A DNA stretch of 64,000 bases, taken from positions 10,569-74,568 of the forward strand of contig DATIPQ010000083.1 in assembly GCA_035471785.1 (NCBI GenBank), given 5' to 3'. The translations under genes were made by a program, and so were the position numbers. The notes under the pieces are model-generated. The model ran no database searches, was not told the DNA's origin, and saw only the letters and a program-made list of their open reading frames with translations. This document shows, piece by piece, positions 7,896-64,000 of the stretch; the stretch's first letter is position 1; each line of letters starts with the position of its first letter. The stretch is from Acidobacteriota bacterium (GTDB lineage: Bacteria > Acidobacteriota > UBA6911 > RPQK01 > DATIPO01).

Positions 7896-11443
<3,548 letters not shown>

Positions 11444-11447
<4 letters not shown>

Positions 11448-30666: not shown

Positions 30667-30674
30667 GGCGCCCC

Positions 30675-34691: not shown

Positions 34692-34693
34692 GT

Positions 34694-37600: not shown

Positions 37601-39697
37601 GACGCTTACTCGGCGAGAGGAGATGGACATGGGAGGAGCGATTTCCTGGCACAATTTGCCCTCATGCTCGACTAGAGCAGTACGCAAGGACTCGTGGCGA
37701 GCCAGGATGCGGGTGAGGGCTTGGTCTAACTCGTCCAGCGACAGATCTCCGCGGATGCGGTAGCCGAAGGGGACCGAGTAGACGGGGGCCCTCCCGTGCA
37801 GCTTGTCCAGGAACCAGAGGCGCTGCTGCCCCCGCGAGGCTGGATGGCGGCCGCGCCGAACCGTCTTCAGCCCGGCGGCGCGCCTCTGCCCGTTCCGGCC
37901 CAGTTTGCCGACGAGGATCTGCGGGTCGCCGTTCCAGCGCTCAAGCAGCAGCGCCGCCAGGGAGCGCACCGACTGGCACCGCTGAAACTCTGCAAAGCTG
38001 ATCTCGATGACGGCAACCTCGGCTATGCGTCCCAGCAGGCACAAGGCCCGCAGGGAATCGCCTCCACAGGCGAAAAAGCCCTGCTCCAGCGATTCGGGAG
38101 AACCTCCTGCGTACTCCTGGAACAGGTCCGCCACCACGAGTTCCAACTCGGAGGCTTTGCCCAAGCTGGCCTTCATGGCTGATTGGGGGGCCGGAAGCCG
38201 GCTGCGGTCCAACTTGGCGGTGACCGGCGAGAGCGGCAACCGTTTCAGAGGAATGAGCACGGACGGGACCATGACCGCCGGAAGGCGCCGGGAGAGGCGG
38301 CGCCGCAAGTCGGAGCGGGAGAAGTTCCGCGCCACAACATAAGCGGCCAGGCGCATATCGCCGGGCGCTTCCTGGTAGGCCACGACGGCCGCCTCCCTCA
38401 CTCCCGGACAGCGCCGAAGGGCGGCCTCAACTTCGTCCAGCTCAACCCGATGGCCGCGGATTTTCACCTGATTATCGACACGTCCGGCGAACTGAATATT
38501 GCCGTCGGCGAGAAGATGACCACGATCGCCGCTACGGTACATCCGGGCGCCGCGACCGGCGAAGGGATCGGGGAGGAAGCGCTCGGCCGTCAGGGCGGGG
38601 CGGTTCAGATACCCCCGAGCCAAGGCCTTCCCGCTGATGAAGAGTTCGCCGGTCTCGCCTGGCCGAACCGGTTCCAGGTCGGCGCCCAAGATATGGATGT
38701 CGACGTTGGCGATCGGCCGCCCGATCGGCACGCAGGGCTCATCGGCCTTTACCGGTCCGCTGAAAATCGCGCAACTGATGGTGGCTTCCGTGGGCCCATA
38801 ATCGGCGATCCATTCGACCTCGCCGCTCCATGGCAGCTCCCGCCAACCCACGAGCTTCTCGGTCAACAGCCTATCGCCCCCGACGAAGACCAACCGCAGA
38901 GCTTGCGGACGCTGGCCGCCCGCTCGGCATAGGGCATCGACCCAGTGATGCCAGTAGGCGCTGGGCAAGCTCAGGACGGAAACCCTTTCGCCATCCAGCA
39001 GGTCCTGCAACTGATCCGCAGTGGGGACGCGTGCTGGAGGCAGCACCACTGCCGCGCCCCGCGACCAGGCCGGAAAGATCTCCTCAAGCGCTGCGTCGAT
39101 GCTGATCGACGTGAATTGAAGCACGCGGTCTTGAGGATGGATGCGCAGGACCTCCGCCATGTGGAGGACGTGATTAAGCAAGCTTGGGCCCGCCACGGCC
39201 ACTGCTTTGGGCCGGCCGGTGGAACCCGAGGTATAGATGCAGTAAACCAAGTCCTCCGGACAGGCGGAGGCGGGAGGATTGGCTTTCGGCTGCCGCGAGA
39301 TGGCGGGCCAATCGGCATCCAAATCGACGACCCGCAATGTGCGGCTCCCCGCCAGCCGCTCCTTGAGGTCTTGACGGGTGAGCAGGAAATCGACCCGGGC
39401 GTCGTCCAGCATCCAACGAAGCCGCCGGACGGGATGATCGGGATCGAGAGGCAGGTAGGCTCCGCCGGCTTTGAGGATGGCCAAAAGGGCCTCCAACATC
39501 CGCACCGACCGTTCCAGGTGGAGTCCTACCAGGCCTGCCGGCTGCAGACCGCCTGCGATCAGGTGGCGGGCCAGTTGGTTGGCGCGGCGGTTCAGTTGCC
39601 CGTAGGTGACCGTTTGGCCTGAGGAGAAGATCGCCGCAGCGTCGGGGCACTCCTCCGCTTTGCGTTCAAAGAGTTCAGTCACCCGTTTCAGCGCCAT
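34694..39697 (-). CDS. NRPS loading + elongation modules A-T-C-A-T
   Basis: Starts directly with an A domain (VTYGQLNRRANQLARHL, LVYCIYTSGSTGRPKA), then FFACGGDSL (T), HHCVFDAWS (C), LYYTSGSTGRPKG/NLYGQTE (A) and FFAVGGNSL (T). The ATG at 39697 has GGAGGG 8 nt upstream and is preferred over 39745. Confidence 0.95.
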   Translation of the reverse strand: MALKRVTELFERKAEECPDAAAIFSSGQTVTYGQLNRRANQLARHLIAGGLQPAGLVGLHLERSVRMLEALLAILKAGGAYLPLDPDHPVRRLRWMLDDARVDFLLTRQDLKERLAGSRTLRVVDLDADWPAISRQPKANPPASACPEDLVYCIYTSGSTGRPKAVAVAGPSLLNHVLHMAEVLRIHPQDRVLQFTSISIDAALEEIFPAWSRGAAVVLPPARVPTADQLQDLLDGERVSVLSLPSAYWHHWVDALCRAGGQRPQALRLVFVGGDRLLTEKLVGWRELPWSGEVEWIADYGPTEATISCAIFSGPVKADEPCVPIGRPIANVDIHILGADLEPVRPGETGELFISGKALARGYLNRPALTAERFLPDPFAGRGARMYRSGDRGHLLADGNIQFAGRVDNQVKIRGHRVELDEVEAALRRCPGVREAAVVAYQEAPGDMRLAAYVVARNFSRSDLRRRLSRRLPAVMVPSVLIPLKRLPLSPVTAKLDRSRLPAPQSAMKASLGKASELELVVADLFQEYAGGSPESLEQGFFACGGDSLRALCLLGRIAEVAVIEISFAEFQRCQSVRSLAALLLERWNGDPQILVGKLGRNGQRRAAGLKTVRRGRHPASRGQQRLWFLDKLHGRAPVYSVPFGYRIRGDLSLDELDQALTRILARHESLRTALVEHEGKLCQEIAPPMSISSRRVSVSSFPSALAAAEAAAREPFDLSRAPLFRSLCIQVAEDEHLLFLNFHHCVFDAWSLGLFWRELCAFLNGQAHLPEPGFQYGDYADWQSRWLRGNQADRQREFWRRQLSGELPSLRLNRDVVLERSFRPKGALEDVRVEADLSLAITQLARRLETTEFTVMLAAFAATLFRHSRQDTIVVGVPAACRPLPETEAIIGYFTNTVALPFRFPPGVTFQELVVQTSRLLSEGMANQQLPFDVVVDELSLPRRRESNPVFQAMFVLQSTPADRELRIRDLDIQEVVIHTETAKVDLTCTLRRAAGGYEGELEYATPLLNKPAARSLVKALKTLLHDAVRRPQARLDELALLPARERQDLAATANARFQAYSGLKTLHQGFEEQVRRYPEAVAIEARQGFLTYRELNSRANRLARVLIEAGAGPEARIGICIERSFDLVAALLAVLKSGAAFVPLDPAQPVERLRSIAQDGGLQIVVTRDAASPDLAPLSIPVGGADDEDLDALQGADPGVTVSLDNLACLYYTSGSTGRPKGVAIDHRCAMNRLRWLADRYPLKEGERVLHKTPLIFDVAIWEIFGPLHAGAAILMTDPGSSSDVAHIQSLLNKPGTVFAHFVPSMLEAYLRSAPPADYPDLRWIQVSGEAMAAHVLQRFSRHFAVELHNLYGQTETSEVAGWEGRDFKNGEGLPIGTQLGIYRLFILDSALSAVPPGVTGELYVAGCGGLARGYYGQPRLTAEKFLPNPYAVSSGERLYRTGDLACFDDQGLIRFLGRGDQQTKIRGCRVECGEIESVLSRHPSVATCAVVLRPDSQGSAQLVAYVVGDRAALPHLAAHAERFLPTFMLPAVYVFRSELPLTPSGKLDRRALPPPQRRDLEARVGGLEPEGQLQSALADLWKEVLGLTKVGRNDNFFAVGGNSLKCIQVLSRVDAAFGVQLSVRDFFSNPTIEGLADATEQAMVAMVASLPEREVERRLSDMGR

Positions 39698-39727
39698 AGA
39701 AGCAGCCCTCCAGCCCGAGGCATCGGA

Positions 39728-39766
39728 GAGGATGGAGGGCGGCATTGGTCATCGCCCTCCATCCTC
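39728..39766 (-). promoter_or_regulatory. Perfect 14-bp inverted repeat (stem-loop) between the small ORF and the loading NRPS
   Basis: GAGGATGGAGGGCG (39728-39741) and CGCCCTCCATCCTC (39753-39766), separated by an 11-nt loop. GC-rich, with no following U-tract on the minus-strand transcript. Confidence 0.6.
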
Positions 39767-50242: not shown

Positions 50243-51050
50243 GGCGCCCTCCGCAGAGGGCCGCACCAACACTAACGGAAACCCGCTCGCGGATGCGGGC
50301 CTGCCCTGCGACCTTGACGCGTTGACCGGCGAGTTCGACCAGCAGCCGGCCTCCCCTCGGCGACAACTGAAGTGCGGCCAGCCGGCTCTTGTGCAGCCGT
50401 TCGCCCCAGTAGGGCCCCAGCTTGCAATGGGCTGAGACGCAAACCTGGTCTTCGTCGACCCCCAAGGCGGGAAAGAACGACCGCGAGACGAAGTCTGCAT
50501 CCTGGGCGCCGGCCCTGGCGGTGACGACGTGGCCGCGGCATTCGATCTGGGCCAGTGCAGCGAAGTCCGGCCGAAGGGATGCCACCGCCTCCTCGTTGTG
50601 CAATTCGATCACGATGTCGTCGATCGACCGGGCGCATTGGACCATCTCGACGCCCAGGGCCTCTCTCAACCCCTGGGGAGGAGGACAGGCAGCCACCTCA
50701 AGCCGAGGCAGGTCGAGCGAGATGAAGCCGTCTCTGAGCCGGGCGTAGAGGGGACCGCTGCAGGTGCGGAAGCATAATTTGGAAGAGCGTCTCACCCCCG
50801 CCACCTCGTACAAGTAGCAGGCGCTTGCGATAGTGGCGTGGCCGCACAGGTTCAGCTCTTTGCGGGGGGTGAACCAACGAATGCGATAGTTGCCGCCGTC
50901 CCCGACCAGGAAGGCCGTAGTGGGCAGGCCCAGGCCCAAGGCAATCGATTGCATCCGCCGGGTGGCAGGAAAACTCTCGGCCGCGACCACTGCCGCGTCA
51001 TTACCCGCGAAACGTTGGTCGGCGAAGGTTTCAGCTATCCAGGCTTGCAT
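50235..51050 (-). CDS. PhzF-family (DapF-fold) isomerase/epimerase-like protein
   Basis: FAGNDAAVV, RIRWFTPRKELNLCGHATIAS. The canonical S-E-T-x-F catalytic motif reads P-T-T-A-F here. The start at MQAWI (51050) overlaps the upstream gene by 20 nt. Confidence 0.8.
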   Translation of the reverse strand: MQAWIAETFADQRFAGNDAAVVAAESFPATRRMQSIALGLGLPTTAFLVGDGGNYRIRWFTPRKELNLCGHATIASACYLYEVAGVRRSSKLCFRTCSGPLYARLRDGFISLDLPRLEVAACPPPQGLREALGVEMVQCARSIDDIVIELHNEEAVASLRPDFAALAQIECRGHVVTARAGAQDADFVSRSFFPALGVDEDQVCVSAHCKLGPYWGERLHKSRLAALQLSPRGGRLLVELAGQRVKVAGQARIRERVSVSVGAALCGGRHG

Positions 51051-52213: not shown

Positions 52214-52921
52214 TTAGGCAGGAATCTTGTGGCGCCCATGAGAAGACGCGGAAATCTCCTTGCCGAGACGGTTGAAAAATCCCTCCCACAACCGCCACAT
52301 CTCTTCTGCGCTCTCCAGGACCAGACCCTCCTCGGCCGCGCTGAAGTCGTGCATCATCGTGTGGTTGGCTTCCTCGACGTGATCAGGTTCCTGCTCGACA
52401 TGAATCTCCACCCATTCCAGGTCGGTGACCCCGGTCGCGCCCGCGACCGCCTTGCCGATGGCCGAGACCATCAAAAGATCCGTCACTTCGGTGGCGAAGA
52501 TGGACCCGAGGGCTGAACAGCGGTCGCGAGAACCCCGTCGATAGCCCTCCACCAGCGCCGCCGTCTCCCGAAAGGGAGCTTGTCCGGTGATTTGCCGGCG
52601 GCTGAATCCGGCCCGCTCCATGGTGTGAATGTAGACCACTTCGTGAGCCCGGCCGACATTTCCTCCGCCCGCCTCTTGAGCGAGTATCCGCGAGATGGCG
52701 CTCTTCGATTCGATATCGGGAAGCACCGCGATGCAGCGAGCCAGGAAGGTGGGGAAGTAATGCAGCGGATGCCACCACTGCCCCACGATCACAGCGGCCT
52801 TGTCGACCGCCAGCGGCGCCTCGGCCACGCGCCGGAAGAAGTCGTGGCCGACGAAACGGCGGCGCACGGAGTTCTCCTCCAAACGGTTCGTCAAGGTGTG
52901 AGAGTTGTGCTTGCTTTCCAT
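52214..52921 (-). CDS. Heme-oxygenase-like di-iron enzyme family protein (iron-containing redox enzyme, HDO/CADD/PqqC-like)
   Basis: QWWHPLHYFPTFLARCI, ILAQEAGGG...HEVVY, FATEVTD and EWVEIHVEQEPDHVEEA supply the expected Glu/His ligand pattern of this helical family. Confidence 0.7.
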   Translation of the reverse strand: MESKHNSHTLTNRLEENSVRRRFVGHDFFRRVAEAPLAVDKAAVIVGQWWHPLHYFPTFLARCIAVLPDIESKSAISRILAQEAGGGNVGRAHEVVYIHTMERAGFSRRQITGQAPFRETAALVEGYRRGSRDRCSALGSIFATEVTDLLMVSAIGKAVAGATGVTDLEWVEIHVEQEPDHVEEANHTMMHDFSAAEEGLVLESAEEMWRLWEGFFNRLGKEISASSHGRHKIPA

Positions 52922-52949: not shown

Positions 52950-53804
52950 TCAAGCGGCCCGTTCAATCAAGAAGTAGCGGTGCAACTCGCAGGCCTTTTG
53001 GTAGAGATCCCGGTTTCCGCTGGCCTTCGCGATCTTGAGAAACGTCTTCCAAATGAAGTTGTCGCCGCCATCTCGGCGATAGTGCCTTTTGATGAGGACG
53101 GCGAATATGTCCCGGTAGTTGTCCAAGTCAATGACGCCTGAAAGCGTCAGCAGGGAATCATGCTCCCGGCTGCTCATGGGACGGCGGGTGCAAATGCTGT
53201 CGGTCGGAATGCCTGCCTCTTTCTCCGGCATGAAGCGCAGCAGCTTGCGGCCGTCATCCACATCCGAGAAGTCGAGCATGAGATGAACCCGCTTGTCCTG
53301 GGAAAAGGAAGCCGCGCTGTGAGGGCAGGAAGCGTCGAAGAACCAGGCCTCGCCGGCCCGCATCCGGTAAACCGTGTTCTCCTCCATGAAGAAACAATGC
53401 TCGTTGGTCAGAAGCGGCAGGTGAAGGCGATGGGCGTTGCGCTTCTTTTCGGGAATTTCTCCCAATTCCAGCAGATCCCTGTGGGGAATGATCACGCTGT
53501 TGGATATGACCGCCAGCCGCGCGAAGTTGAGGAAATCGAGATTGAAGTACCGCTCAACAAGCCCGGAAAGATAAGGCAGTTGTCGACCGTATTCGGTAAT
53601 CGCCGGGCGCTGCGTGAAGTCATAGTTGGTGACCAGGCCGTCGCCCCGGTCGCCTCCGGCCGCCCAGAGCATGCAACTTTTCCAAGGACCGCCGCACAGG
53701 TATTCGCTGTAAGCGTCGGAGAAAGCGAGGCGGGCGCTTTTTTCAATCTCCGCATCGGCCTTGGTCCAATCGATTTCCAACCGTCCGACTCTTTGTGTAC
53801 GCAT
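52950..53804 (-). CDS. Fe(II)/2-oxoglutarate oxygenase, proline 3-/cis-4-hydroxylase-like (aspartyl beta-hydroxylase-type cupin)
   Basis: GRLEID, IIPHRDLLEL (H108-x-D110, about 53475-53483), YRMRAGEAWFFDASCPHSA (H162) and the C-terminal LTLSGVIDLDNYRDIFAVLIKRHY. All are collinear with my recollection of Streptomyces proline 3-hydroxylase. Confidence 0.65.
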   Translation of the reverse strand: MRTQRVGRLEIDWTKADAEIEKSARLAFSDAYSEYLCGGPWKSCMLWAAGGDRGDGLVTNYDFTQRPAITEYGRQLPYLSGLVERYFNLDFLNFARLAVISNSVIIPHRDLLELGEIPEKKRNAHRLHLPLLTNEHCFFMEENTVYRMRAGEAWFFDASCPHSAASFSQDKRVHLMLDFSDVDDGRKLLRFMPEKEAGIPTDSICTRRPMSSREHDSLLTLSGVIDLDNYRDIFAVLIKRHYRRDGGDNFIWKTFLKIAKASGNRDLYQKACELHRYFLIERAA

Positions 53805-53816
53805 CGCGACTTCCTT

Positions 53817-54707
53817 TCAGGCAACGGAGGTAAAAGGCTCGCCCCAGACATTTGCGCTCTTGACCCGGTTGTGACCGTAGACATCCTTGCCGCCCACCAG
53901 GACGCACCCGTGGCGGGAGAGATCAAAGTGATGCCCGAACTCGTCGAACTCGGTCATGCCCTCATACACTTTCACGTGGGTTGGAATGACCCGGATCGAG
54001 AAGCCCATCCTCTGCTTGCGGCTGGTATTGGGATTCGAGCCGTGAACGCAGCGCGCGGTAAAGATCACGAACTCTCCCGGTTTCATCTCGGCGTAGGCGA
54101 TGTCTTTCTCGTCGGGATTCCAAGTCTTGTCGAGCTTGGCGTCGTCGTAGCTGTAGCCGAAAAACGTATTCTCGATCCGAGTGTCGTCCCAGTTCAGCCT
54201 GCGCTTCTCGTCGTAGTACCAGGTGCGGTGGCTGCCGGGCAGGAATCTCAGACATCCGTTCTCTTTGGTGGCCTCGGTGAAGGCCACCCAGGCGGTCAGC
54301 TCCATGGGGACGCCGTTGGAATGGGTAGTCGCCTTCAGCATCCCCTCGGTGGCTTCGCCAATGGCGTAGGTTTCGACCTGGTGCCAACCAGTCCCGGCAT
54401 CTCCCGGATTCTTGGGAAAGAACTCTGTGCGCCAGCAGAGCACGTCGGGGCCGATCAAGGACTGAAAGCGCCGCACGATGGCCGGCTCGGAGATGATCCT
54501 GCTCAAGCCCGGGATGTCGAGGTGGCGGTCGTAGTTAAGCGGGTTGTCGAAAGCGGCCCGCTTGGTGTTCTCAGGGTTGAGAAGCGCCGCCCGCTGCTCC
54601 TTCCACCATACCTTCATGGCCTCGGGCTCCCACAGTTTGAAGGGGCCGATGAAGCCCTGTTGGTTGAAGGTCTCCCTTTCCGATTCGAAGTCGATCATCT
54701 TTTTCAT
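53817..54707 (-). CDS. SyrB2-like carrier-protein-dependent Fe(II)/2OG enzyme (PhyH superfamily), halogenase-type metal motif
   Basis: FNQQGFIGPF, NYDRHLD, LIGPDVLCWRTEFFPKNPGDAGTGWHQVETYA, ENGCLRFLPGSH, FFGYSY and VHGSNPN...RMGF. These are near-collinear with the SyrB2 sequence as I recall it. Confidence 0.8.
   Translation of the reverse strand: MKKMIDFESERETFNQQGFIGPFKLWEPEAMKVWWKEQRAALLNPENTKRAAFDNPLNYDRHLDIPGLSRIISEPAIVRRFQSLIGPDVLCWRTEFFPKNPGDAGTGWHQVETYAIGEATEGMLKATTHSNGVPMELTAWVAFTEATKENGCLRFLPGSHRTWYYDEKRRLNWDDTRIENTFFGYSYDDAKLDKTWNPDEKDIAYAEMKPGEFVIFTARCVHGSNPNTSRKQRMGFSIRVIPTHVKVYEGMTEFDEFGHHFDLSRHGCVLVGGKDVYGHNRVKSANVWGEPFTSVA
54375..54383 (-). other. Metal-binding motif H109-Q110-V111 (no carboxylate ligand)
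   Basis: Codons CAC CAG GTC were verified on the minus strand. The equivalent motif in SyrB2 is H-Q-A, and in PhyH-type hydroxylases it is H-x-D. Confidence 0.7.
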
Positions 54708-54896: not shown

Positions 54897-57530
54897 TCAA
54901 CCTGAGCGGATGGAGCTGAGGGCTTCGTCCAGGGCGCGCGCCGTCGAGGCCGCCAGAGGCTGGCGAAGGATGCTGCAGTGGTCGCCGGGCACAGCGTGAA
55001 TGCGCATGGGGCCCAGGACGATCTTGTGCAGCTCGACGGCCAGCGAGTCCTGGACCGCCTGCGATGAACCCGTAGGCTGAAACAGGTCGACGGCGCCGTC
55101 AAAGGGGAGGGGACGATACTTCATGGCGGCCCCCATGCTGTCGCGGGCGACACGAAGGTTCTTCTTCAGATGGGCCGCCTGCAGACCTTGCGGGATATTA
55201 TTACCCAGCAGCCCGTTCCAAGCGGGATCGGCGAAAAACCGGGACAGGCCGTTTTTTCCATCCCCCGCGTCAACAGTCCCGGTCTCGATCTTTTGCAGCG
55301 CCTCGGTGAGCAGATCCAGGTGAGGGCTCTCTGCGATCCTGAGTCCGGTGATGGGATCGCGCAAAGGGTTGGCGTCGATGAGGCCTAGAAAATCGACCCG
55401 CTCGCCGCAGCCGGTCAGTTGGCGGGCCAGTTCGAAGGCCAGCACCCCGCCGAAGGACCATCCGGCCAGCCGGTAGGGTCCTCGGGGTTGAACGGCGCGG
55501 AGTTGCGTGAAGTGGACTTTGGCCATCTCCTCAATCGAACCCATGCAGGCTGGATCGCCTTGCTCCCCGCAATGCCAGCGCAGCCCCAGGATGCGAAAGG
55601 GAGATCTGATCGCATGGGCCAGTTCGCGATAGGCCAAGAGCTCGCCTCCCAGCGGATGGACGAACAAGAGAGGCCGTTTGGGCGGGCCGGGACGGATGGT
55701 GACGACTTCCGACCTCAGCTCCAAGCCCTCGCGCCGAAATTCACGGGTATCCAGTGCCCTTGCGAGCTCAGCAACGGTGCTGTTGTGGAGGAGAAAAGAC
55801 AGCTCGATCTCGCTGCCCACCAACTGACCGATTTCCGTCACGGCCCAGGCAGCCAGAAGGGAATCCCCGCCAACATCGAAGAAATCGTCGTCCAGAGCGA
55901 GTTGGTCATGACCCAGAATCCGCTCCCAGATTCGCCTGATGGCCTCGGCCAGAGAGTCGCCCGTGCTGACGTCGCCGTCCATCGGGGGCAGTTCGAGTTC
56001 CTGCAAGGCCAGACGGTCGATCTTGCCGCTGCTGGTCTGAGGCAACGCCTCAAGTTGGACCAGACGCGCCGGGATCATGTAGCTTGGCAGCAGGGAGCGC
56101 AAATGCCCCAGCACTTCGACGTCGCTCACCCGCTCGCCGTGGACGACAAGGAAAGCTACCAGGGCGGAAACGTCCTCAGCCAACGGGCGGGCCAGCACCG
56201 CCGCTTCGCCTACCGCGGGATGGTCGGTGAGGGCCTTTTCAACCTCGGCAGGCTCGACGCGGAATCCATTGATCTTGACCTGGGCGTCCGAGCGTCCCAG
56301 AAAATGGAAAAGCCCTTTCGTGTCGACCCGCGCCAAGTCCCCCGTGCGGTACATGCGCGCGCCCTGCCCCTCGCTGAAGGGATCAGGCAGGAAGCGCCGC
56401 GCGGTTTCAGCCGGCGCCTCCAGATAGCCTCGTCCCACGCCCTCACCGCCCACGAACAGCTCACCGGTTTGACCGGGTTTCACCGGAACCAGATTGGGGT
56501 CCAGGTTGTAGAGCGCCACATCGTCCACCGGGCTGCCGATCGGCGGCAGCGGCGGCCAGGCGGAAGGTTTCCCAGCCAAGGTGTAGCTGGTCACCAGATG
56601 GGCTTCTGTGGGGCCGTAGTGATTGTCGAAGCGGCATTCCGGCAAAGCCTGAAAGAAGCGGGCAATGGGTTTGGTGATGATGAGGCGCTCGCCGGCGGTG
56701 ATGACGTGGCGCAAAGAATCCGGCACAAGGCCAAGCCGTTGCGAGGCCTTGGCCAACTGTTGCAGAGCGACGTAAGGCAGGAACAGTCTTTGAATTGACT
56801 TTTCCTTCAATTGGTAGAGCAGCCGCTCAGGGTCCCGCCGCACTTCATCGGGGAGCAGAAACAAAGCGCCACCCGTGCACAAGGCGGAAAAAACCTCCTG
56901 AAAAGTCACGTCAAAACCCAAGGAGGTGAACTGCAGGGTGGCGAGTCCTGGAGGTCCTTGGGCGATCTGCCACCGAATCAGACGGGTCAGGCCACGGTGG
57001 CTCATGCCCACTCCCTTGGGCGGACCAGTGGAACCGGAAGTGTAGAGGACGTAGGCCAGATGCCGGGGACGCAGGAACGGGCGGGGAAAGCGTGCATTCA
57101 GCAGCGGTGCGGCGTCCTCGCCGCTGCCGACGACAAGGGCGGGGAGATCCCAGCCCGAAGCATCCTCGTCCGCCACGATCGCGGCCGGATGCAAGTTCTC
57201 GAGCATGGCGGCGATGCGCTTCCTGGGCAGAGAGGGGTCGATGGGCGCATAAACTCCGCCGGCTCCAAGAACCGCCAGCATGGCGACGAACAGTTGGGGC
57301 GAGCGGCTCATGAGAACTGCCACGGGCCTGTCGGGCCCCACACCGAGCCCCAGCAACTGCCCCCTGAGACGGCTTGAGCGTTGCATCAGCCTTCCATAAC
57401 TGATGGGGCGCCCGTTCTTATCGACGATGGCTGCCCGCTCGGGATGCACTTCCGATTGATGCCTGACCCATTCATGGACGAAGCCGGAGGCCTTTTTCTT
57501 CGAGGCTGGCCATTCATCTTGCAAAAGCAT
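54897..57530 (-). CDS. NRPS A-T-TE (completes a split module with the C domain ending the upstream protein)
   Basis: ISYGRL, LAYVLYTSGSTGPPKG, NHYGPTE, FFDVGGDSL (T) and GWSFGG (TE). The ATG at 57530 is preferred over the TTG at 57548 and overlaps the upstream stop by 17 nt. Confidence 0.9.
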   Translation of the reverse strand: MLLQDEWPASKKKASGFVHEWVRHQSEVHPERAAIVDKNGRPISYGRLMQRSSRLRGQLLGLGVGPDRPVAVLMSRSPQLFVAMLAVLGAGGVYAPIDPSLPRKRIAAMLENLHPAAIVADEDASGWDLPALVVGSGEDAAPLLNARFPRPFLRPRHLAYVLYTSGSTGPPKGVGMSHRGLTRLIRWQIAQGPPGLATLQFTSLGFDVTFQEVFSALCTGGALFLLPDEVRRDPERLLYQLKEKSIQRLFLPYVALQQLAKASQRLGLVPDSLRHVITAGERLIITKPIARFFQALPECRFDNHYGPTEAHLVTSYTLAGKPSAWPPLPPIGSPVDDVALYNLDPNLVPVKPGQTGELFVGGEGVGRGYLEAPAETARRFLPDPFSEGQGARMYRTGDLARVDTKGLFHFLGRSDAQVKINGFRVEPAEVEKALTDHPAVGEAAVLARPLAEDVSALVAFLVVHGERVSDVEVLGHLRSLLPSYMIPARLVQLEALPQTSSGKIDRLALQELELPPMDGDVSTGDSLAEAIRRIWERILGHDQLALDDDFFDVGGDSLLAAWAVTEIGQLVGSEIELSFLLHNSTVAELARALDTREFRREGLELRSEVVTIRPGPPKRPLLFVHPLGGELLAYRELAHAIRSPFRILGLRWHCGEQGDPACMGSIEEMAKVHFTQLRAVQPRGPYRLAGWSFGGVLAFELARQLTGCGERVDFLGLIDANPLRDPITGLRIAESPHLDLLTEALQKIETGTVDAGDGKNGLSRFFADPAWNGLLGNNIPQGLQAAHLKKNLRVARDSMGAAMKYRPLPFDGAVDLFQPTGSSQAVQDSLAVELHKIVLGPMRIHAVPGDHCSILRQPLAASTARALDEALSSIRSG
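54900..55694 (-). other. Thioesterase domain of the A-T-TE protein
   Basis: The last ~265 aa are an alpha/beta-hydrolase with LLFVHPLGGE and the nucleophile elbow AGWSFGGVLAFE (Ser, not Cys). Confidence 0.7.
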
Positions 57531-60500
57531 GTTCGACGATCTCCTCAAGTAATGCGTTGTACCTTCCCAACAAAGCCCCGGCCGCCGTGCCCGAGCCGAG
57601 CCTGCCCTTAAGCGTCAGTTGCCCGCTCAAGCCGCTGTCGGACATTGCCAGGTAGAGAATGAGGTCGTAGTCGTGCACCGCCGACTTGAAAAAGCCGGAC
57701 TGGGCCTCAACCGGCGCCGGCTCGGTGGTCAGCCCGGCGAAGGCGTTCATTTCGGCAGGCTGTTCATCGAAAAGGAAGAAGGCCTGAGCCAGTGCGCTCC
57801 GTTCTATTCCGGACTCCGTACTCAGGCGTCGCATCAGTTCCTCGAAGGGGACATCGTGATGTCCGCAGGCGTGCAGGAACGACTCGCGCACCCGGCGCAG
57901 CGCTCCCAAGGGCGATTGCCGGGGAGAAACCCTGGTGCGCAGAACCAGCGTATCCGTAAGCGGACCCACCATGTTTTCGAGCGGGCGCTGATGACGCGAC
58001 GCCAGATTGGTGGCCACGCGGACGTCGCAACTCCCGCCTTGCCGCTGAAGAAGCCTTTTCAAGGCCGAGAGCAAGACCACGAAGAGGGACGTCTGCTCGC
58101 GACGGGCCACTTTTGCCAGTTTCATAGAGAGAGCAGGTGCGATCTTGAGGGGATAGCTTTCCACCCCCTCCTCGGAGCCGTCCCGCGCCGGACGCCAAGA
58201 AAAGCGCATGCGCTCCAGTGGCGGCTCCAGGATGCTTTTCCATTGCGCCACCTGGCCGTCGAAAAGGCCTTGCTCCAGGCACTCCCTCTCCCAGAAGGCG
58301 TAATCGCCAAAAGTGAGGGAGGGCCGAGTAAGGGGCGAATCCAGTCCTCTGGCAATGGCCTCATAGTCGGCGGCGAATTCCCGCCCTAACACGCCCAGGC
58401 TCCATTCATCGGCCACGATGTGGTGGGCCACCAAAGTCAGGACATGGTGATCTTGCTGCAAACGGGCGATCATGAAACGGGCACACGGACCTCTCGCCAG
58501 GTCAAAGGGCCTGGCAGCCTCTGATTGAGCCGCCTCGAGCAAAAGGCGTTTCTCCTGCTCGTCGCGAATGTGTGCGAAATCGAAAAGGGCGGCCTCAACA
58601 CAGGTGCCGTCGTCCCACTGCTGCCAGAGCCTTCCGTCCCGCAGATCGAACTTGGCGCCGAGAATCGGGTGCCGCCGCGACAGTGCTTCCAGAGCCTGCT
58701 TGCCCGCGGCCAAGTCGAAGGGGCCTCTGAGAGCGAAGGAGCTGGCGATGTTGAGAAAGTGCGGGTTCTCAGCCGTCCGATCCACTGACCAGAAATGGCG
58801 CTGCACCAGCGTCGTCGGCGAGGCGGCGGCGGAACGGGCCCGCAAAGGCGGCAACCTCTTGGCAAGGCCCCGCGAGCGGTCAACTTCCGCTGCCAGCTCC
58901 GAAACGGTCGGATGCTTGAGGATGGCCTGCAGAGGCAAGGCAACGCCTAGGTCCTCGTTGATCCGGGCCATAACGCGGATGCCGATCAATGAATGTCCGC
59001 CCAAGTCGAAGAAATGGTCGTGAACGCTGAGCCGCTCCAGGCTGAGGAGTTGCTTCCAGATTTCGCACAGCCGCCGCTCGGTTTCAGTTCGGGGTGACCG
59101 GTCGGCGGCGGCTATGCCTCTTGAGTCAGTTGTCTGGAGGCCAGAGACGTCTACCTTGCCCTGGGCCGTCAACGGAGTGTCGGCGATACGTCCGATGGTG
59201 AGGAGAGGCTTCGATTGGGGCAGCAGCACGGCCAGGAGCCGCCTGACGGATTTGAGGTCAAGACCTTCGTAGCTAGCCGTGACAAAGGCCCTCAGACCTG
59301 CACCGGAGTCCTTATCCCTTACGATCCATGCGTCGTCGATGCCTTGGCAATGCAGCAACGCGGCTCTGACCTGGGCGCCATCGATGAGCATCCCATCGTC
59401 CTCCAGCACCTCGTCGTCGCGTCCCCAGAATTGCAGGTCGCCGTTCTCCAAACAGCGCACTCGGTCACCGGTCCGGCAGAGACGCTTGTCTGGAATGTCT
59501 CCATGAGGCGGAGGGGTGAATGTTTCAGCGGTTTGTCGAGGCCGATGAAGATAACCGCGGGCCAAGCCGGCCCCGGCCAAGTAGAGTTCGCCCACCACTC
59601 CGGCCGGAACGGGAAGGCCGCGCTGATCCAAGACGTAGCAGCGGGTGTTTGAAATGGGCCGGCCGATGGCCGGCGCTTGCCCGGGCCGCCGCAACTTGCA
59701 GGCGGCAAAGGCCCCGGCCTCGACAAGTCCGTAGAGGTCGTAGACCCGCAAGGAGCCGGCCGCCTGCTGACAGACCTGATCGGCGAGAGCGGTTTCGAGG
59801 CGTTCGCCGTAGAGATTGACCACCCGCAAGGACTCGGGCAAGGCCTCAGGGTGCTTCCGCAACAGAACCCGCACGCTCCCCGGTGTCGTGTTCGCCATCG
59901 TGACGGAATCCCTTGCCGGCAGGAAAGGAAGGGAGAGGGCGTTCTCGGCCAGCACCAGACTGTGCCCGGAGCAGAGCGGAACGAAGATTTCGAAGAGTGA
60001 GGGGCCGCGGCAAAGCGAGCAGGAGGCGAGCACTGCGGCAAGATCCTCGGCCGGGTAAAAGCCGTGGGCCCAGTCGAGGAGCGAAGTGACGCTTCGATGC
60101 TCGATCATGACCATCTTCGGAATGCCGAGATAATCTCGCCCGGAGAGCATGATGCAGGCTAGACTCTCGGGGGCTGCCGGCAATCCGCGATCAAGCGGCG
60201 GGGCATCCCCCTCGTCCGGCAGCAGCACCTCTCCCTCCCATCTTGGGAGAGATTCGGCCACCTCGCCTTCAGCGACCAGGACCTGGGTGCAGCACTGGTC
60301 GAGCAGAGCTTGGATTTTCAGCAGCGGATAGTGAGGCTCGATGCAGATGAAAGCGGCGCCCGCCTTAAGGACGCCGAGAAGGCTGGCGATTAGCCGCGGC
60401 GTGCGCCGCATGCACAGGGCCACCACCTGTCCCGGCCTCACGGACCGGTCCAACAGCCGGCCTGCCAGTCTGTTGGCTTCATCGTTGAGTCTGCTGTACG

Positions 60501-62136
60501 AGATGACCTCCTGCCCAAAGCGGACAGCCACAGCCTCTGGCCGTTCCCGAACGCGGGCCTCGAACAACTCGTGAAGACAGCTCGTCTCGATGTCTTGGGT
60601 GCTTTCAGCGTCCCTCCATCGCCACAGCATCAGGTCTCTTTCCGGCGGAGTCAGGAGAGGGGCGGTTGTGATGCATCCGTGAGGATTACGGGCCATTTCC
60701 GTCAACACCAGCTCAAAGTGGCCGGCCATGCGTCGGACCGCCCTGCGATCAAAAAGGTGATGAGGATATTCGAAGATGCCGTTCAGTCCGGCTTCGCTTT
60801 CCTGCAGCGAAAGCAGGAGGTCGAACTTGGCGGTTTGAGTTTCGACTTCTCTCAAGTCGGCCCGCAGTCCGCGGAACTCATATCCCTGCGAGGAGGCTTC
60901 GGTGAAGGAAAGCATGACTTGAAAGAGGGGTCCGCTACGCGGCGGGTTTTGCCGGGCGAGTTCTTCAGCCAGAGTCTCGATGGGCAGGTCCTGATGCTCG
61001 AAGGCTTCCAGCGCCGCGGCACGCTCGCCCGCCAGCACGTCCTGCCAGGTATCTGAAGGCCTGAGCGGATTGCGCAGCACGATTGTATTGCCGAAGTAGC
61101 CCATCAGGGCTTCGGTTCCGGGCAAAGTCCGGCGGATGACGGGCGTGCCGATTAACACGTCGGTCAGTTCAGTGTATCGAAGGAGCAGAATGCGGAAAGC
61201 GCTGACCAGGAGCATGAACCGCGTCGCCTGCAGGCTCCGGCCGACCTCGGCCAGGCCGGCGCCGAGTTGCTTTGAGATGTGAAAAGACACCCGTTCGCCA
61301 CGAACTTCTTCCGGGGGAGCGCAAAAAGCAGCGAAAGGCAGTCTCACGGGGGTCCATTGTCCGCTGAGCTTTTGCCTCCAATAGGCCAGGAGCTTCTCCT
61401 TGCGAGCCCCCTTCAAGTGGCCTTGCTCCCACACCGCGAAGTCGGCGTAACTCAGTGCCGGTTCGGGCAGGGAAGCTTCTGGTGCTTGGTAGAATGCGGC
61501 CAATTCGCGCAGAAATATGGAAACCGAAGAGACGTCCGCCACGATGTGGTGCAGCTTGACGAAAAGCCAATGAAGCTGATCGTTCTGCCGAAACAGACGT
61601 GCTTGAAATGGGGCGCGCTGAGCCAGGTTGAAGGGCTTTGAGGCATCCTCGCTCATCAGCCTCCAGGCAGCGGCTTCATCTGCGACCTCCTCAGCAGGCA
61701 GATTGCAAGGGGCCCTATCGACGACCTGCATCGGACCGTCCGGCGTCTCCACGAAATAGGTCTGCAGGACTTCTTGCCGGCGTCGGACCCGGCTCAAGGC
61801 GCCCACCATCGAGGACACTCTCAGAGGACCCTCCAGCTTGAGCGTGAATGCAATGTTGTAAGCCGGACTGAGGGGCGCCAGTTTCCACTGCGCCCACATC
61901 CGCTGCTGTCCTGAGGAAAGCGGGAGCGTATGGCTACGGTCGGCCCTGGGAACGGCTTGCGGCAGTGAGCGGAGGGCCGATCCCAGACGTTCGAGAAGCT
62001 GCTCGCGATGCTTTCGAAGCCGCCTCCTGCAGCTTTCATCGAGGGCGCCTGGCGGAGCTTGGTACCTAAGCCTGTCCCCCTCGGCCCAGATTCGGACTTG
62101 CCGTTGGCGCAACTCAGCCAGAAATTGCTCAATCAT
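57514..62136 (-). CDS. NRPS dock-C-A(degenerate)-T-C
   Basis: N-terminal TubC-type dock, HHIVADVSS (C), degenerate A domain, FFDLGGHSL (T) and HHIVADEWS (terminal C). The start is set at MIEQF (62136), 24 nt after the mbtH-like stop. Confidence 0.9.
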   Translation of the reverse strand: MIEQFLAELRQRQVRIWAEGDRLRYQAPPGALDESCRRRLRKHREQLLERLGSALRSLPQAVPRADRSHTLPLSSGQQRMWAQWKLAPLSPAYNIAFTLKLEGPLRVSSMVGALSRVRRRQEVLQTYFVETPDGPMQVVDRAPCNLPAEEVADEAAAWRLMSEDASKPFNLAQRAPFQARLFRQNDQLHWLFVKLHHIVADVSSVSIFLRELAAFYQAPEASLPEPALSYADFAVWEQGHLKGARKEKLLAYWRQKLSGQWTPVRLPFAAFCAPPEEVRGERVSFHISKQLGAGLAEVGRSLQATRFMLLVSAFRILLLRYTELTDVLIGTPVIRRTLPGTEALMGYFGNTIVLRNPLRPSDTWQDVLAGERAAALEAFEHQDLPIETLAEELARQNPPRSGPLFQVMLSFTEASSQGYEFRGLRADLREVETQTAKFDLLLSLQESEAGLNGIFEYPHHLFDRRAVRRMAGHFELVLTEMARNPHGCITTAPLLTPPERDLMLWRWRDAESTQDIETSCLHELFEARVRERPEAVAVRFGQEVISYSRLNDEANRLAGRLLDRSVRPGQVVALCMRRTPRLIASLLGVLKAGAAFICIEPHYPLLKIQALLDQCCTQVLVAEGEVAESLPRWEGEVLLPDEGDAPPLDRGLPAAPESLACIMLSGRDYLGIPKMVMIEHRSVTSLLDWAHGFYPAEDLAAVLASCSLCRGPSLFEIFVPLCSGHSLVLAENALSLPFLPARDSVTMANTTPGSVRVLLRKHPEALPESLRVVNLYGERLETALADQVCQQAAGSLRVYDLYGLVEAGAFAACKLRRPGQAPAIGRPISNTRCYVLDQRGLPVPAGVVGELYLAGAGLARGYLHRPRQTAETFTPPPHGDIPDKRLCRTGDRVRCLENGDLQFWGRDDEVLEDDGMLIDGAQVRAALLHCQGIDDAWIVRDKDSGAGLRAFVTASYEGLDLKSVRRLLAVLLPQSKPLLTIGRIADTPLTAQGKVDVSGLQTTDSRGIAAADRSPRTETERRLCEIWKQLLSLERLSVHDHFFDLGGHSLIGIRVMARINEDLGVALPLQAILKHPTVSELAAEVDRSRGLAKRLPPLRARSAAASPTTLVQRHFWSVDRTAENPHFLNIASSFALRGPFDLAAGKQALEALSRRHPILGAKFDLRDGRLWQQWDDGTCVEAALFDFAHIRDEQEKRLLLEAAQSEAARPFDLARGPCARFMIARLQQDHHVLTLVAHHIVADEWSLGVLGREFAADYEAIARGLDSPLTRPSLTFGDYAFWERECLEQGLFDGQVAQWKSILEPPLERMRFSWRPARDGSEEGVESYPLKIAPALSMKLAKVARREQTSLFVVLLSALKRLLQRQGGSCDVRVATNLASRHQRPLENMVGPLTDTLVLRTRVSPRQSPLGALRRVRESFLHACGHHDVPFEELMRRLSTESGIERSALAQAFFLFDEQPAEMNAFAGLTTEPAPVEAQSGFFKSAVHDYDLILYLAMSDSGLSGQLTLKGRLGSGTAAGALLGRYNALLEEIVEHAFAR
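59077..60579 (-). other. Adenylation-like domain with degenerate core motifs (approximate bounds)
   Basis: A3 reads LACIMLSGRDYLGIPKMV (60109-60162) instead of LAYxxYTSGSTGxPKG. The A4 FDxS motif is absent (CRGPSLFEIF). A5 reads DLYGLVE. A8 reads GRDDEVLEDDGMLIDG. A6 (GELYLAGAGLARGY) and A7-like CRTGD are retained. Confidence 0.7.
61972..62136 (-). other. TubC-type N-terminal docking domain
   Basis: MIEQFLAELRQRQVRIWAEGDRLRYQAPPGALDESCRRRLRKHREQLLERL. Confidence 0.6.
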
Positions 62137-62162: not shown

Positions 62163-62384
62163 TCACCCGGCAGATTCGGCGGCCTCCATGCTCTTGCGCA
62201 GGCTGGCGGGGCGCATGTCGGTCCAAAGTTCGCCGATGCGCTCCAGGCAGTCCTCTTTGGGAGCTGCCGATCCCACGGTTTCCCAGCCGTCCGGGACAGG
62301 CATGTCGGAACGCCAAATGGAGTACTGTTCTTCGTGGTTGCGAACCACGTAATAGAGGTCATCGCTACTGTTGTTGTCGGTCAT
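62163..62384 (-). CDS. MbtH-like protein
   Basis: YYVVRNHEEQYSIWRSDMPVPDGWETVG...CLERIGELWTDMRP matches the MbtH signature (N.E.Q.S.W......P.GW). The start at MTDNN (62384) overlaps the upstream gene by 20 nt. Confidence 0.85.
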   Translation of the reverse strand: MTDNNSSDDLYYVVRNHEEQYSIWRSDMPVPDGWETVGSAAPKEDCLERIGELWTDMRPASLRKSMEAAESAG

Positions 62385-64000
62385 AGATCCGTTCTCCCTG
62401 GTGGTTTTGGAAGACTTCGCCGTCGCTTCGCTCTTCATCCTCCCTCAAGGACTGGCCGAGCACCCGCTCGATAATGTCGCGTTCGCCGAGTTCGGTCCGC
62501 CGCGCCATGGCAAGGGCGGCGCGGCGCCTGTCGGCCTCGTCGCGGTCTTGCGACAGCTTGAAACGGCCGAGGATTTCGTCAATCTCGATTTCAAAGCCCA
62601 CGATGTACCCGATCAGAGTCTCGATTCGGGGATCGTCGGGGCTGAGCCGGAAAGCGCCTATCTCCTGATCGGAATGCTCGGCGATGGCGCAGAGTCCCTT
62701 GACAAGCTCTTCGCGGTCGGTGATCAGACGCGCGAGGCCTTCGACGTGCACGGTGAGCGAGTTCCAAGTGGGAAGTTGGTCGGTGGCATATACGTGGGGC
62801 GAGATGTAGCTGTTGGGCCCGTGAAACAAGGCCGTGACGCACCGCCCTTCAAGAAGCTCGACGTGCGGATTGGCGCGGTCCATATGCCCGAAGAGGACTC
62901 CCTTGGCTCCGCGGCCGCGGTCGAGGATGAGCGGGACCTGCGTTATCACGGGCTCATCCTCCCTGCGCGCCGAGATCAGCGTAGCGAACCTGAACCGCTC
63001 CATCACCGCATAGAGTTTGTCGCTCGAATGCTCCAGGTGGCGCTCAGGCGGATACGCGCCCGATAAGGCCTTCGCCGAACGCTCCTCGGCGGCTGGCGTC
63101 CGCCGACAGATGTCCGCGAAGATCTCTCGCGCGCGGAACGGCAACAGCGACATCAGCGTCTCGCCGATGCCAAAGGAGGACTCACCCAGCCCCTGGGCGT
63201 AGAGTCCGCAGCCCATCTCAGGGTCGGTCTGCAGCCGGTGACGGCGTGAAAGAAGGAGTCTGCCTTGGGAGTCCTTCTTGCACAGGGGCAGCACCTCGGC
63301 AAAGATTTCAGGATCGAGGGAGCGATCATATCCGGTGCTCAGCACAACGCCGTCGAAGCTCATCGAACTTGGCGAGGCGCCATATTTTGCGTCTACCGTC
63401 AGGCGCACTTTTTCCTCGCCCGCCTGAATCGCCTGCACACGCGAAAAGGGATGAATGTAGAGACGTTGGCGGCCTTTAACCTCGTCCAGATAACTGCTGC
63501 GGTAGAGGTTTTCAAGCAAGCTCAGCTCGATGACGCCGTAGTTGGTGGTCCGCAATTCCCGTAGAATCGCCGCTCGTTTCTCGGGGCTATAGTTACGAAA
63601 GGCGTCCGCATGCCTGGAGGAGAAGTGCTCGTTGACGAAAGGGCTGTCGTCCGTGGGGCGCGGAGCCGAGCCGGAAATCAGCATGTGTATGCTCGCCCGC
63701 GGGTAGCGTTGATGCAGGTATTCGAGGATCTCGCCGGCACTCTGGCCCCCGCCCACGACTGCGAAATCGTAGCTCCTCCGATGGTCCTCAAACTGTCTGG
63801 GGAAGTGGGGAAGAAATCTGCTCGAATGCACTACCCGGTCAGAGCAGCAAGCCGTCCCTGAGGGGATTCGGGGACGGCCTCCGGGAGCATAGACGATGTT
63901 CTGTGCCAAGTGCTGAGCGGTGTCTCCCGTGGCTGTCTTCGTGACCTCCACGCAAAAGCACCAGGGCACGGTCTCCCCCTTTCGGGTCAGGAGCGAGACC
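62365..64000 (-). CDS. Fusion protein: L-ornithine/L-lysine N-hydroxylase (IucD/PvdA/KtzI family) + PaiB/KtzT-like domain; 5' end outside window
   Basis: The visible N-part has HSSRFL, FAVVGGGQSAGEI, GVVLSTGY and LYAQG of the flavin N-hydroxylase family. The reading frame stays open to the window edge, so the FAD-binding N-terminus is missing. Confidence 0.75.
   Translation of the reverse strand, partial: VSLLTRKGETVPWCFCVEVTKTATGDTAQHLAQNIVYAPGGRPRIPSGTACCSDRVVHSSRFLPHFPRQFEDHRRSYDFAVVGGGQSAGEILEYLHQRYPRASIHMLISGSAPRPTDDSPFVNEHFSSRHADAFRNYSPEKRAAILRELRTTNYGVIELSLLENLYRSSYLDEVKGRQRLYIHPFSRVQAIQAGEEKVRLTVDAKYGASPSSMSFDGVVLSTGYDRSLDPEIFAEVLPLCKKDSQGRLLLSRRHRLQTDPEMGCGLYAQGLGESSFGIGETLMSLLPFRAREIFADICRRTPAAEERSAKALSGAYPPERHLEHSSDKLYAVMERFRFATLISARREDEPVITQVPLILDRGRGAKGVLFGHMDRANPHVELLEGRCVTALFHGPNSYISPHVYATDQLPTWNSLTVHVEGLARLITDREELVKGLCAIAEHSDQEIGAFRLSPDDPRIETLIGYIVGFEIEIDEILGRFKLSQDRDEADRRRAALAMARRTELGERDIIERVLGQSLREDEERSDGEVFQNHQGERIYDRQQQ
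62455..63057 (-). other. PaiB-family (FMN_bind_2-like split-barrel) C-terminal domain
   Basis: FRFATLISA...ITQVPLILD...LFGHMDRANPH...ALFHGPNSYISPHVY...LPTWNSLTVHVEG...GFEIEIDEILGRFKLSQDR follows the PaiB pattern. The heme-dependent piperazate synthase KtzT/PzbB belongs to this fold family. Confidence 0.7.

Follow-up and report, generated by a model that had tools for sequence, protein, structure and literature searches.

The analyzed stretch of DNA, 64,000 nucleotides of contig DATIPQ010000083.1 and called the window in what follows, ends inside a minus-strand gene, in which a flavin-dependent N-hydroxylase is joined to a domain of the PaiB/piperazate-synthase fold (PF04299). The question raised by this gene is whether one polypeptide both hydroxylates ornithine and closes the N-N bond of piperazate, for use by the non-ribosomal peptide synthetases (NRPSs) encoded next to it, as proposed in an earlier note on the same DNA. 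The fusion itself is genuine, well beyond chance. For its function, we give a slightly better than even chance to a bifunctional enzyme of the described chimeric N-hydroxylase/piperazate-synthase class, forming piperazate. The parts of the gene found within the window are listed below, with residues numbered on the full-length protein, P0001.

62365..64000, minus: 3' part of the fusion gene (1,636 nt), coding for residues 150-693 of P0001 and the stop; open frame with two Pfam domains
63100..64000, minus: flavin N-hydroxylase (class B monooxygenase) domain, residues 150-449, from PF13434, solved-structure matches and Foldseek
63055..63099, minus: interdomain linker TPAAEERSAKALSGA, residues 450-464 (15 aa)
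62368..63054, minus: predicted heme domain of PF04299 (PaiB / piperazate-synthase fold), residues 465-693, from Pfam and structure alignments
62884-62886, minus: axial His521 (codon map, as for the next five)
62878-62880, minus: Asp523
62773-62775, minus: Leu558
62767-62769, minus: Thr560
62626-62628, minus: Arg607
62557-62559, minus: Lys630

The frame, 62365-63999 on the minus strand, runs through 544 stop-free codons and ends in ...IYDRQQQ, with the stop at 62365-62367; the 5' 446 nt of the gene lie outside the window. The whole gene is present in an independent assembly (locus L001), where it encodes P0001, of 693 aa: 149 residues are added past the window edge, among them the motif GVGFGPSN (residue 35), which binds flavin adenine dinucleotide (FAD). 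Two Pfam profiles match in the same frame: Lys_Orn_oxgnase (PF13434, E 2.4e-45) from position 130 to 338 of 339, its N-terminal third being cut by the window edge, and FMN_bind_2 (PF04299, E 7.8e-34), which is complete (2-167 of 168). The AlphaFold2 model of P0001 features two folded domains, with a mean predicted local distance difference test (pLDDT) score of 80, and a disordered stretch at residues 454-463 (pLDDT <50). When a collection of 5.8 billion proteins is searched, both Pfam domains are found in all of the best 120 matches, hydroxylase first, at 46-60% identity to P0001; length and sequence of the linker differ between these fused homologues. The independent assembly, together with the conservation of the fusion in homologues, excludes a frameshift or an assembly artefact as its origin. 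The architecture described in the earlier note is thereby borne out: a single frame containing HSSRFL, VVGGGQSAGEI and LSTGY, both domains recognized by their profiles, and a linker of about 15 aa, disordered in the model; the missing N-terminus is now recovered as well.

The N-terminal domain of P0001 has the features of a class B flavin N-hydroxylase: PF13434, the FAD motif GxGxxN, the GxGxSA motif for reduced nicotinamide adenine dinucleotide phosphate (NADPH), here GGGQSAGE at residue 232, and (A/S)TGY, here at residue 369. Substrate-site asparagines are found within SPFVNE and TTNYGV. Among solved structures, the ornithine enzymes KtzI (291 bits) and PvdA (290.6) score highest, in line with the KtzI-type hydroxylase of the earlier note, and the lysine enzyme MbtG follows at 277. 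By Foldseek, the modelled domain reaches a target-normalised template modelling score (TM-score) of 0.92 to both KtzI and PvdA. With the ornithine N5-hydroxylases KtzI, PvdA and SidA, the protein shares FAD and NADPH motifs, the substrate-site Lys/Asn/Asn/Ser and the fold (target-normalised TM-score 0.86-0.93), while differing from them by its extra C-terminal heme domain. The equivalents of SidA Lys107, Asn293, Asn323 and Ser469 are kept in P0001, but the same four are kept in MbtG: with MbtG scoring almost as high, a preference for ornithine or for lysine is not separable by sequence.

The C-terminal domain belongs to PF04299. Within this family, piperazate synthases are set apart from NohD and from the other members by Phe2/Pro4, Asn68, Ala105 and Tyr155: Asn68 forces a heme propionate up, the Ala105 site is occupied by Val elsewhere, Tyr155 binds the substrate carboxylate, and in NohD a Val-to-Ala change at the Ala105 site is needed for any piperazate formation (PMC12576811). 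Signatures were read from alignments to solved structures, whose identities are taken from PMC13274692 and PMC12603108, in the order axial His / Asn68 site / Ala105 site / Thr / Tyr155 site / Lys:

All four solved piperazate synthases: His-Asn-Ala-Thr-Tyr-Lys
NohD: His-Ala-Val-Thr-Arg-Lys
PaiB: His-Ala-Val-Thr-Met-Lys
Window protein: His521-Asp523-Leu558-Thr560-Arg607-Lys630

His521 aligns with the heme-ligand His (PipS His66), found in 120 of the best 120 fused homologues, and Thr560/Lys630 match the Thr/Lys catalytic dyad (PipS Thr107/Lys178). Ligand His, dyad and propionate-binding Asn are kept in 117-120 of the 120; Asn526 is another key residue of the domain in P0001. The stand-alone piperazate synthases KtzT, PipS, SbPZS and LnzB (EC 4.8.1.1; PDB 9JN4, 9EBK, 9QLK, 9KEA) are similar in PF04299 fold, axial His, Thr/Lys dyad and the Asn touching the second propionate, and have a partner ornithine N-hydroxylase, encoded immediately upstream. 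The window protein differs from them in having Asp/Leu/Arg for Asn68/Ala105/Tyr155 and Tyr for Phe2, in being one residue shorter before the PTW motif, in its identity of only about 27% and in its covalent fusion.

A number of results weigh against a piperazate product. All three discriminating sites are replaced throughout the fused homologues, by Asp at the Asn68 or HP2 site (Asp523; 119 of 120), Leu at the Ala105 or AS2 site (Leu558; 120 of 120) and Arg at the Tyr155 or AS1 site (Arg607; 108 of 120). On average, the fused domains are 27% identical to piperazate synthases, 31% to NohD and 36% to PaiB, a protein that binds heme yet makes no piperazate (PMC12603108). When 1.84 billion representatives are searched exhaustively with HMMER, the 150 nearest relatives include no canonical piperazate synthase. 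In a neighbor-joining tree (capped distances, 200 bootstraps) piperazate synthases form a clade in 194 of 200 bootstraps, and a clade with NohD in 196, every fused sequence falling outside. The bit scores against solved structures follow the same line: PaiB 94, SbPZS (9QLK) 80, NohD 79, LnzB 73, KtzT 68 and PipS 62; SbPZS itself reaches 140-151 bits with NohD and no more than 70 with PaiB. From signature, scores and tree, the heme domain is one in which the catalytic core is kept, but which lies outside the classical piperazate-synthase lineage. It is a new point that, on these sequence comparisons, all of the fused class forms a PF04299 lineage of its own, whose active-site signature differs from those known. 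The Asp/Leu pair co-varies (of the 150 nearest PF04299 representatives, 46-48 have both), and the subfamily so defined holds, besides the fused members, stand-alone ones of about 200 aa.

PaiB itself (Geobacillus/Bacillus; PDB 2OL5, 9VYC), the top-scoring solved relative, is heme-binding and has in common with the window domain the Tyr-x-Pro N-terminal motif and the His, Thr and Lys; it differs in having Ala/Val at two discriminating sites, in standing alone, outside biosynthetic clusters, and in making no piperazate (PMC12603108). A true PaiB regulator was considered and rejected, given the enzyme to which the window domain is joined, the NRPS operon around it and the conserved active-site pair that sets it apart. 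Of the features of PaiB proper (a stand-alone protein of about 200 aa, Ala/Val at HP2/AS2, a location outside biosynthetic clusters), none is found: the domain is fused, carries Asp/Leu and belongs to an NRPS operon. The KtzT-like domain of the earlier note therefore survives in its heme-ligand His and Thr/Lys dyad and not in Asn68/Ala105/Tyr155; of the two signs which that note had held against it, the grouping with PaiB-like proteins is seen (94 bits to PaiB against 62 to PipS; outside the clade of piperazate synthases and NohD in 196 of 200 bootstraps), the loss of KtzT catalytic residues is not.

The replaced residues bring in NohD as a model for the reaction (PDB 9OQS; PMC12576811). A NohD-like dehydratase would convert N5-hydroxy-ornithine (or N6-hydroxy-lysine) to an imine and then to pyrroline-5-carboxylate (P5C) (or piperideine-6-carboxylate) and ammonia, with no N-N bond: a proline- or pipecolate-type imino acid would in this way be made by oxidation, to be hydroxylated or halogenated and loaded by the terminal NRPS module. 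NohD, which does use N5-hydroxy-ornithine and release ammonia (PMC12576811), is similar to the window domain in fold and dyad, in the Arg at the Tyr155 site (NohD Arg144), in a bulky aliphatic residue at the Ala105 site (NohD Val96) and in the Asp starting the AS3 loop. It is dissimilar in having Ala at the propionate site, where the window protein has Asp, and a His2/Phe4 N-terminus in place of Tyr/Pro; moreover, its gene cluster is without an ornithine N-hydroxylase gene, and NohD clusters with piperazate synthases, which the window domain does not. When the NohD-type features are taken together (Ala59, Val96, Arg144, His2/Phe4, no partner N-hydroxylase), Arg alone is matched, with Asp, Leu and Tyr/Pro at the other sites and a hydroxylase fused to the domain. 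We consider the dehydratase, the main rival to piperazate formation, unlikely: NohD and PaiB have an Ala that allows a flat propionate where the window protein has Asp523, NohD (79 bits) matches the domain no better than SbPZS (80 bits) does, a two-cofactor path would be a costly way to P5C or proline, already supplied by ordinary metabolism, and chimeras of the same architecture are published as piperazate makers.

These chimeras are natural KtzI-KtzT didomain proteins, which make piperazate in actinobacteria and, from ornithine, in vitro; one review attributes them to Hu et al. 2019 (ACS Chem Biol 14:696; PMC11705231), and a second one likewise credits Hu et al. 2019 with piperazate-making KtzI-KtzT chimeras (PMC7347517). 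The architecture of a single-polypeptide piperazate synthase is therefore already known and not novel in kind: since natural chimeras are cited in reviews, the novelty of the fusion implied by the earlier note is gone (PMC11705231, PMC7347517). The actinobacterial chimeras ('PzbAB', NMO-PZS; PMC11705231, PMC7347517, PMC12150314) are like the window protein in that a single chain starts with the hydroxylase and ends with the PF04299 domain, and in their location in NRPS clusters, and the fused proteins of Streptomyces, Micromonospora, Nocardia and Mycobacterium are about 50% identical to it, with the same active-site signature; the difference lies in the host, which for the window is probably an acidobacterium, and in a cluster common to a Rhizobium plasmid. 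Among the best 120 matches, the only catalytically intact hydroxylase-PF04299 fusions are of the His-Asp-Leu-Thr-Arg-Lys class, and an artificial concatenate of canonical KtzI and KtzT, used as a query, yields stand-alone hydroxylases in all of its best 120 matches and no canonical-type fusion. As the window class is the only competent fusion detected, the published piperazate-forming chimeras most probably belong to this Asp/Leu/Arg lineage, and their 'unique position-specific' residues would agree with such a membership. That the tested chimeras fall in the window lineage is deduced rather than demonstrated, which counts among the points against piperazate.

Arguing for piperazate are the published activity of the architecture, the catalytic residues, Asp and not Ala at the propionate site, the KtzI-like partner and the NRPS/imino-acid context. 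The proposed course of the reaction starts from what is read directly (fusion, cofactor motifs, catalytic residues, operon) and adds by deduction which substrate is used, that an N-N bond is formed and what becomes of the product. As homology suggests, the N-terminal FAD/NADPH domain would hydroxylate the side-chain amine of L-ornithine to N5-hydroxy-L-ornithine; the hydroxylamine nitrogen would be bound at the heme b iron of the C-terminal domain, with His521 as the iron ligand, and Thr560 and Lys630 would strip the hydroxyl to leave an electrophilic nitrenoid, on which the alpha-amine would close the ring to L-piperazate. More speculatively, Asp523, isosteric with the classical Asn, may hold the heme propionate 'up', and Arg607 may replace Tyr155 as carboxylate anchor. 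The imino acid would then be accepted by a terminal module of adenylation, thiolation and thioesterase domains (A-T-TE), with a proline-type pocket, and the product would perhaps be tailored by a proline-hydroxylase-like and a SyrB2-like enzyme before release of the non-ribosomal peptide.

Candidate genes for this last step lie next to the fusion, in a cluster with the order: BTAD regulator, fusion, MbtH, N1, N2, SyrB2-like, proline-hydroxylase-like, heme-oxygenase-like di-iron enzyme, desaturase-like genes and PhzF. The rows below give those to which the argument refers (C, condensation domain).

62163..62384, minus: MbtH-like protein, 73 aa (PF03621, 5.3e-18); its start overlaps the end of the fusion by 20 nt
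57514..62136, minus: NRPS N1, with TubC_N docking, C, A, T, C (Pfam)
54897..57530, minus: NRPS N2, terminal A-T-TE (Pfam; code DVQFIAHLVK)
53817..54698, minus: SyrB2/CytC3-type Fe/2-oxoglutarate enzyme of the carrier-protein-dependent halogenase family (CytC3 3e-65, SyrB2 2.1e-64)
52950..53804, minus: homologue of free-proline hydroxylases (cis-4, cis-3) (Pfam Asp_Arg_Hydrox and Pro_3_hydrox_C; 4p7w 1.6e-41, 1e5r 2.7e-34)
52214..52921, minus: heme-oxygenase-like di-iron enzyme (PF14518 3e-21; syntenic in L082)
20986..39745, minus: further NRPSs N3, N4 and N5 (Pfam, code extraction)
34694-39745, minus: N3, A-T-C-A-T, codes DAESFGDISK and DVWHQSLEVK
within 20986..39745, minus: N4, C-A-T-TE
within 20986..39745, minus: N5, TubC_N-(C-A-T)x3

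The fusion thus heads an NRPS operon, as had been stated in the earlier note: fusion, MbtH, C-A-T-C and A-T-TE follow each other. The operon order is repeated on a Rhizobium leguminosarum plasmid (L082) and on two metagenomic contigs (L083, L085), and MbtH is a neighbor of the fusion in these and in L084. N4-like and N5-like genes are found directly upstream of the fusion in L083, for which reason the second NRPS block (20986-39745) is placed in the same cluster; in L085, an N3-like gene stands beside the fusion. Compared as a whole (20986-62384, minus), the cluster shares with L082, L083 and L085 N3, N4, N5, fusion, MbtH, N1, N2, the SyrB2-like, proline-hydroxylase-like and di-iron enzymes, three desaturase-like genes and PhzF, in circularly permuted blocks and with two TE domains. 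At E <= 0.001, Pfam leaves two open reading frames (ORFs) of the cluster without a match, 49166-50500 (minus, 444 aa) and 40151-41023 (minus, 290 aa). As for the host, one housekeeping protein encoded in the window, an acyl-CoA dehydrogenase, is 74-78% identical to proteins of Acidobacteriota metagenome-assembled genomes, and an alginate-export porin, also encoded there, agrees with a Gram-negative host.

The A domain of N1 (about residues 580-1060 of the 1600-aa ORF) has lost core motifs A3, A4, A5 and A8, when compared to its orthologues: A3 is changed from YTSGSSGxPKG to LSGRDYLGIPKM, A4 from FDLS to RGPS, A5 from LYGPTE to LYGLVE and A8 from QxKxRGxRIE to VLEDDGMLID. The orthologues in L082, L083 and L085 carry an Ala code, DLFNNALTYK; the flanking C and T domains of the window N1 look intact. 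This A domain is probably dead, so that either the module would have to be loaded in trans or the cluster is decaying.

Fused relatives number more than 120 and are widespread: the best 120 are proteins of Streptomyces, Micromonospora, Nocardia, Mycobacterium xenopi, Amycolatopsis, Rhizobium leguminosarum (plasmid), Bradyrhizobium, Paraburkholderia and many metagenomes. Among the reference genomes scanned, where the closest fused homologue is only 53% identical to P0001 and the window species is thus not represented, three arrangements are found: intact fusions with the Asp/Leu/Arg signature (L002, L003, L008, L010, L011); fusions with a partial PF04299 (profile 11-79 only), devoid of the heme His, Thr and Lys (L004-L007, from a Melainabacteria metagenome genome, Amycolatopsis, Actinomadura and Actinoplanes); and, at nine loci, KtzI and KtzT encoded side by side as two genes, the synthase having the canonical signature. 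A split version of the window class is found in L088, where a hydroxylase gene and an Asp/Leu/Arg gene overlap by 4 nt beside NRPS genes, mirroring the KtzI/KtzT pairs; of four stand-alone Asp/Leu/Arg proteins looked at, the other three lie on contigs of only about 1 kb. Longer or different fusions occur as well. In P0242 (2336 aa) the hydroxylase-PF04299 fusion has its PF04299 match at 449-654, with signature His-Asp-Leu-Thr-Val-Lys, and runs on for about 1,700 more residues, presumably NRPS domains. At two of the nine canonical loci, L012:11255-13522 (Streptosporangium nondiastaticum) and L014:11330-13525 (Streptomyces sp. NPDC008137), the Asn/Ala/Tyr synthase is fused at its C-terminus to an A domain (FMN_bind_2 and AMP-binding in one ORF), just downstream of a separate KtzI-like gene; by its domain content, this layout is another way to couple piperazate formation to loading.

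The degenerate fusions are located as follows.

L004:1707-3728: degenerate fusion
L005:9866-11725: degenerate fusion
L006 and L007, match at about 10001-11700: degenerate fusions

They bear on the view that the hydroxylase alone matters, supplying N-hydroxy-ornithine or -lysine for a hydroxamate-type peptide, with PF04299 serving as a dimerisation, heme-sensing or regulatory module. This clade stays fused without His, Thr and Lys, and always adjoins NRPSs with codes DAESFGDISK and DVWHQSAEVK, nearly equal to those of the window N3; acidic pocket residues in these codes suggest a basic or N-hydroxylated side chain. For the window protein such a role is improbable: heme ligand, dyad and Asp/Leu are nearly invariant (117-120 of 120) in the best fused homologues, which argues for selection on catalysis, and the acyl- or formyl-transferase typical of hydroxamate siderophore clusters is not seen among the annotated genes of the window.

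The codes of the A domains, in turn, add to the points against piperazate. The natural piperazate code, DVFSVAxYAK, is found in no A domain of the window, nor in 80 related loci. Its absence has little power, since it is also missing within ±10 kb of the nine canonical KtzI/KtzT pairs. The candidate acceptor, N2, carries DVQFIAHLVK, a proline code of the classical type, with a pocket that is not enlarged; by MAFFT alignment it is identical in the Rhizobium orthologue (L082) and in L085 (where a later run misaligned positions 330/331), and thus conserved across phyla. The imino-acid-type A domain of the earlier note is accordingly present, with a code which is proline-type and not the natural piperazate one. 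Proline-type codes adjoin Asp/Leu/Arg-lineage enzymes in 6 of 11 loci, and in none of the nine canonical KtzI/KtzT loci (±10 kb): examples are DIQFAAHAVK (L010) and DIQ?AAHAA-K (L011) in Streptomyces and DVQYI?HVAK beside the split pair of L088. This recurrent pairing suggests that the product is a cyclic imino acid fitting a proline-like pocket. It is compatible with piperazate, read by a second, non-actinomycete-type code, and equally with a proline-type product: the conserved proline-type code and the free-proline hydroxylase homologue, a fixed neighbor, both speak for the dehydratase route discussed above.

The dissimilarity of the associated codes to the known piperazate code can also be read as a sign of another nitrenoid ring closure, for instance of a different diamine, leading to a cyclic hydrazine other than piperazate or to a C-N cyclised imino acid. 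The active-site signature, distinct and strictly conserved, with Asp and Leu co-varying, and a hydroxylase nearly as close to the lysine enzyme MbtG (277 bits) as to KtzI (291) would agree with it. Such a reaction is speculative, and we hold it to have a slim chance: the hydrazino acids reported for canonical piperazate synthases are 5- and 6-membered only (PMC12150314), and the activity published for chimeras is piperazate formation. A piperazate-containing peptide, the leading hypothesis of the earlier note, is thus still leading, although lineage, three residues and A-domain code make it less secure than was assumed.

The tailoring genes have features of their own. In the SyrB2-like enzyme the iron motif is WHQVET (H-Q-V), with Val where halogenases have Ala/Gly and hydroxylases Asp/Glu; it is kept in all three syntenic clusters (window, L082:19562-20443, L085:19574-20497). 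KthP, an enzyme of the SyrB2 family, chlorinates carrier-bound piperazate in kutzneride biosynthesis: the presence of a SyrB2/CytC3 homologue adjoining the A-T-TE module of the window is a resemblance to this system, not a test. The only solved relative of the di-iron enzyme, encoded close to the SyrB2-like gene, is BesC, a 4-chloro-allylglycine synthase, with a weak match (E 1.3e-4); a halogenate-then-cleave logic is conceivable for the two enzymes. In L084 (10001-21111) a proline-hydroxylase-like gene directly follows fusion and MbtH, and is then followed by a glyoxalase-type dioxygenase, an SfmD-type heme peroxidase, a luciferase-like reductase, a PhzF-like isomerase and a gamma-glutamyltranspeptidase, a gene set which we take to resemble the 4-alkyl-proline pathway of lincomycin and hormaomycin.

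As bioactive scaffolds, peptides with piperazate are of value. Actinomycetes are their predominant source, and the fused lineage was left out of sequence-network surveys, which were filtered to 200-300 aa (PMC12150314). The window gene enlarges the known chimeric class by a member whose phylum is unusual and whose cluster is conserved between phyla. With its different signature, the fused class makes a direct assay worthwhile: it is a natural experiment, where the His/Thr/Lys core is kept and all three N-N determinants from recent mutagenesis are replaced. It is possible, though doubtful, that the Asp/Leu/Arg lineage represents either a convergent origin of heme-dependent N-N bond formation, contradicting the determinants found in PipS and NohD, or an enzyme with a different product; if so, the cluster family would encode the first such peptide outside actinomycetes. 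If the enzyme makes piperazate, its cluster, present in Acidobacteriota-like bacteria and on a plasmid of the cultivable Rhizobium leguminosarum, would widen the search for these peptides and offer a tractable host.

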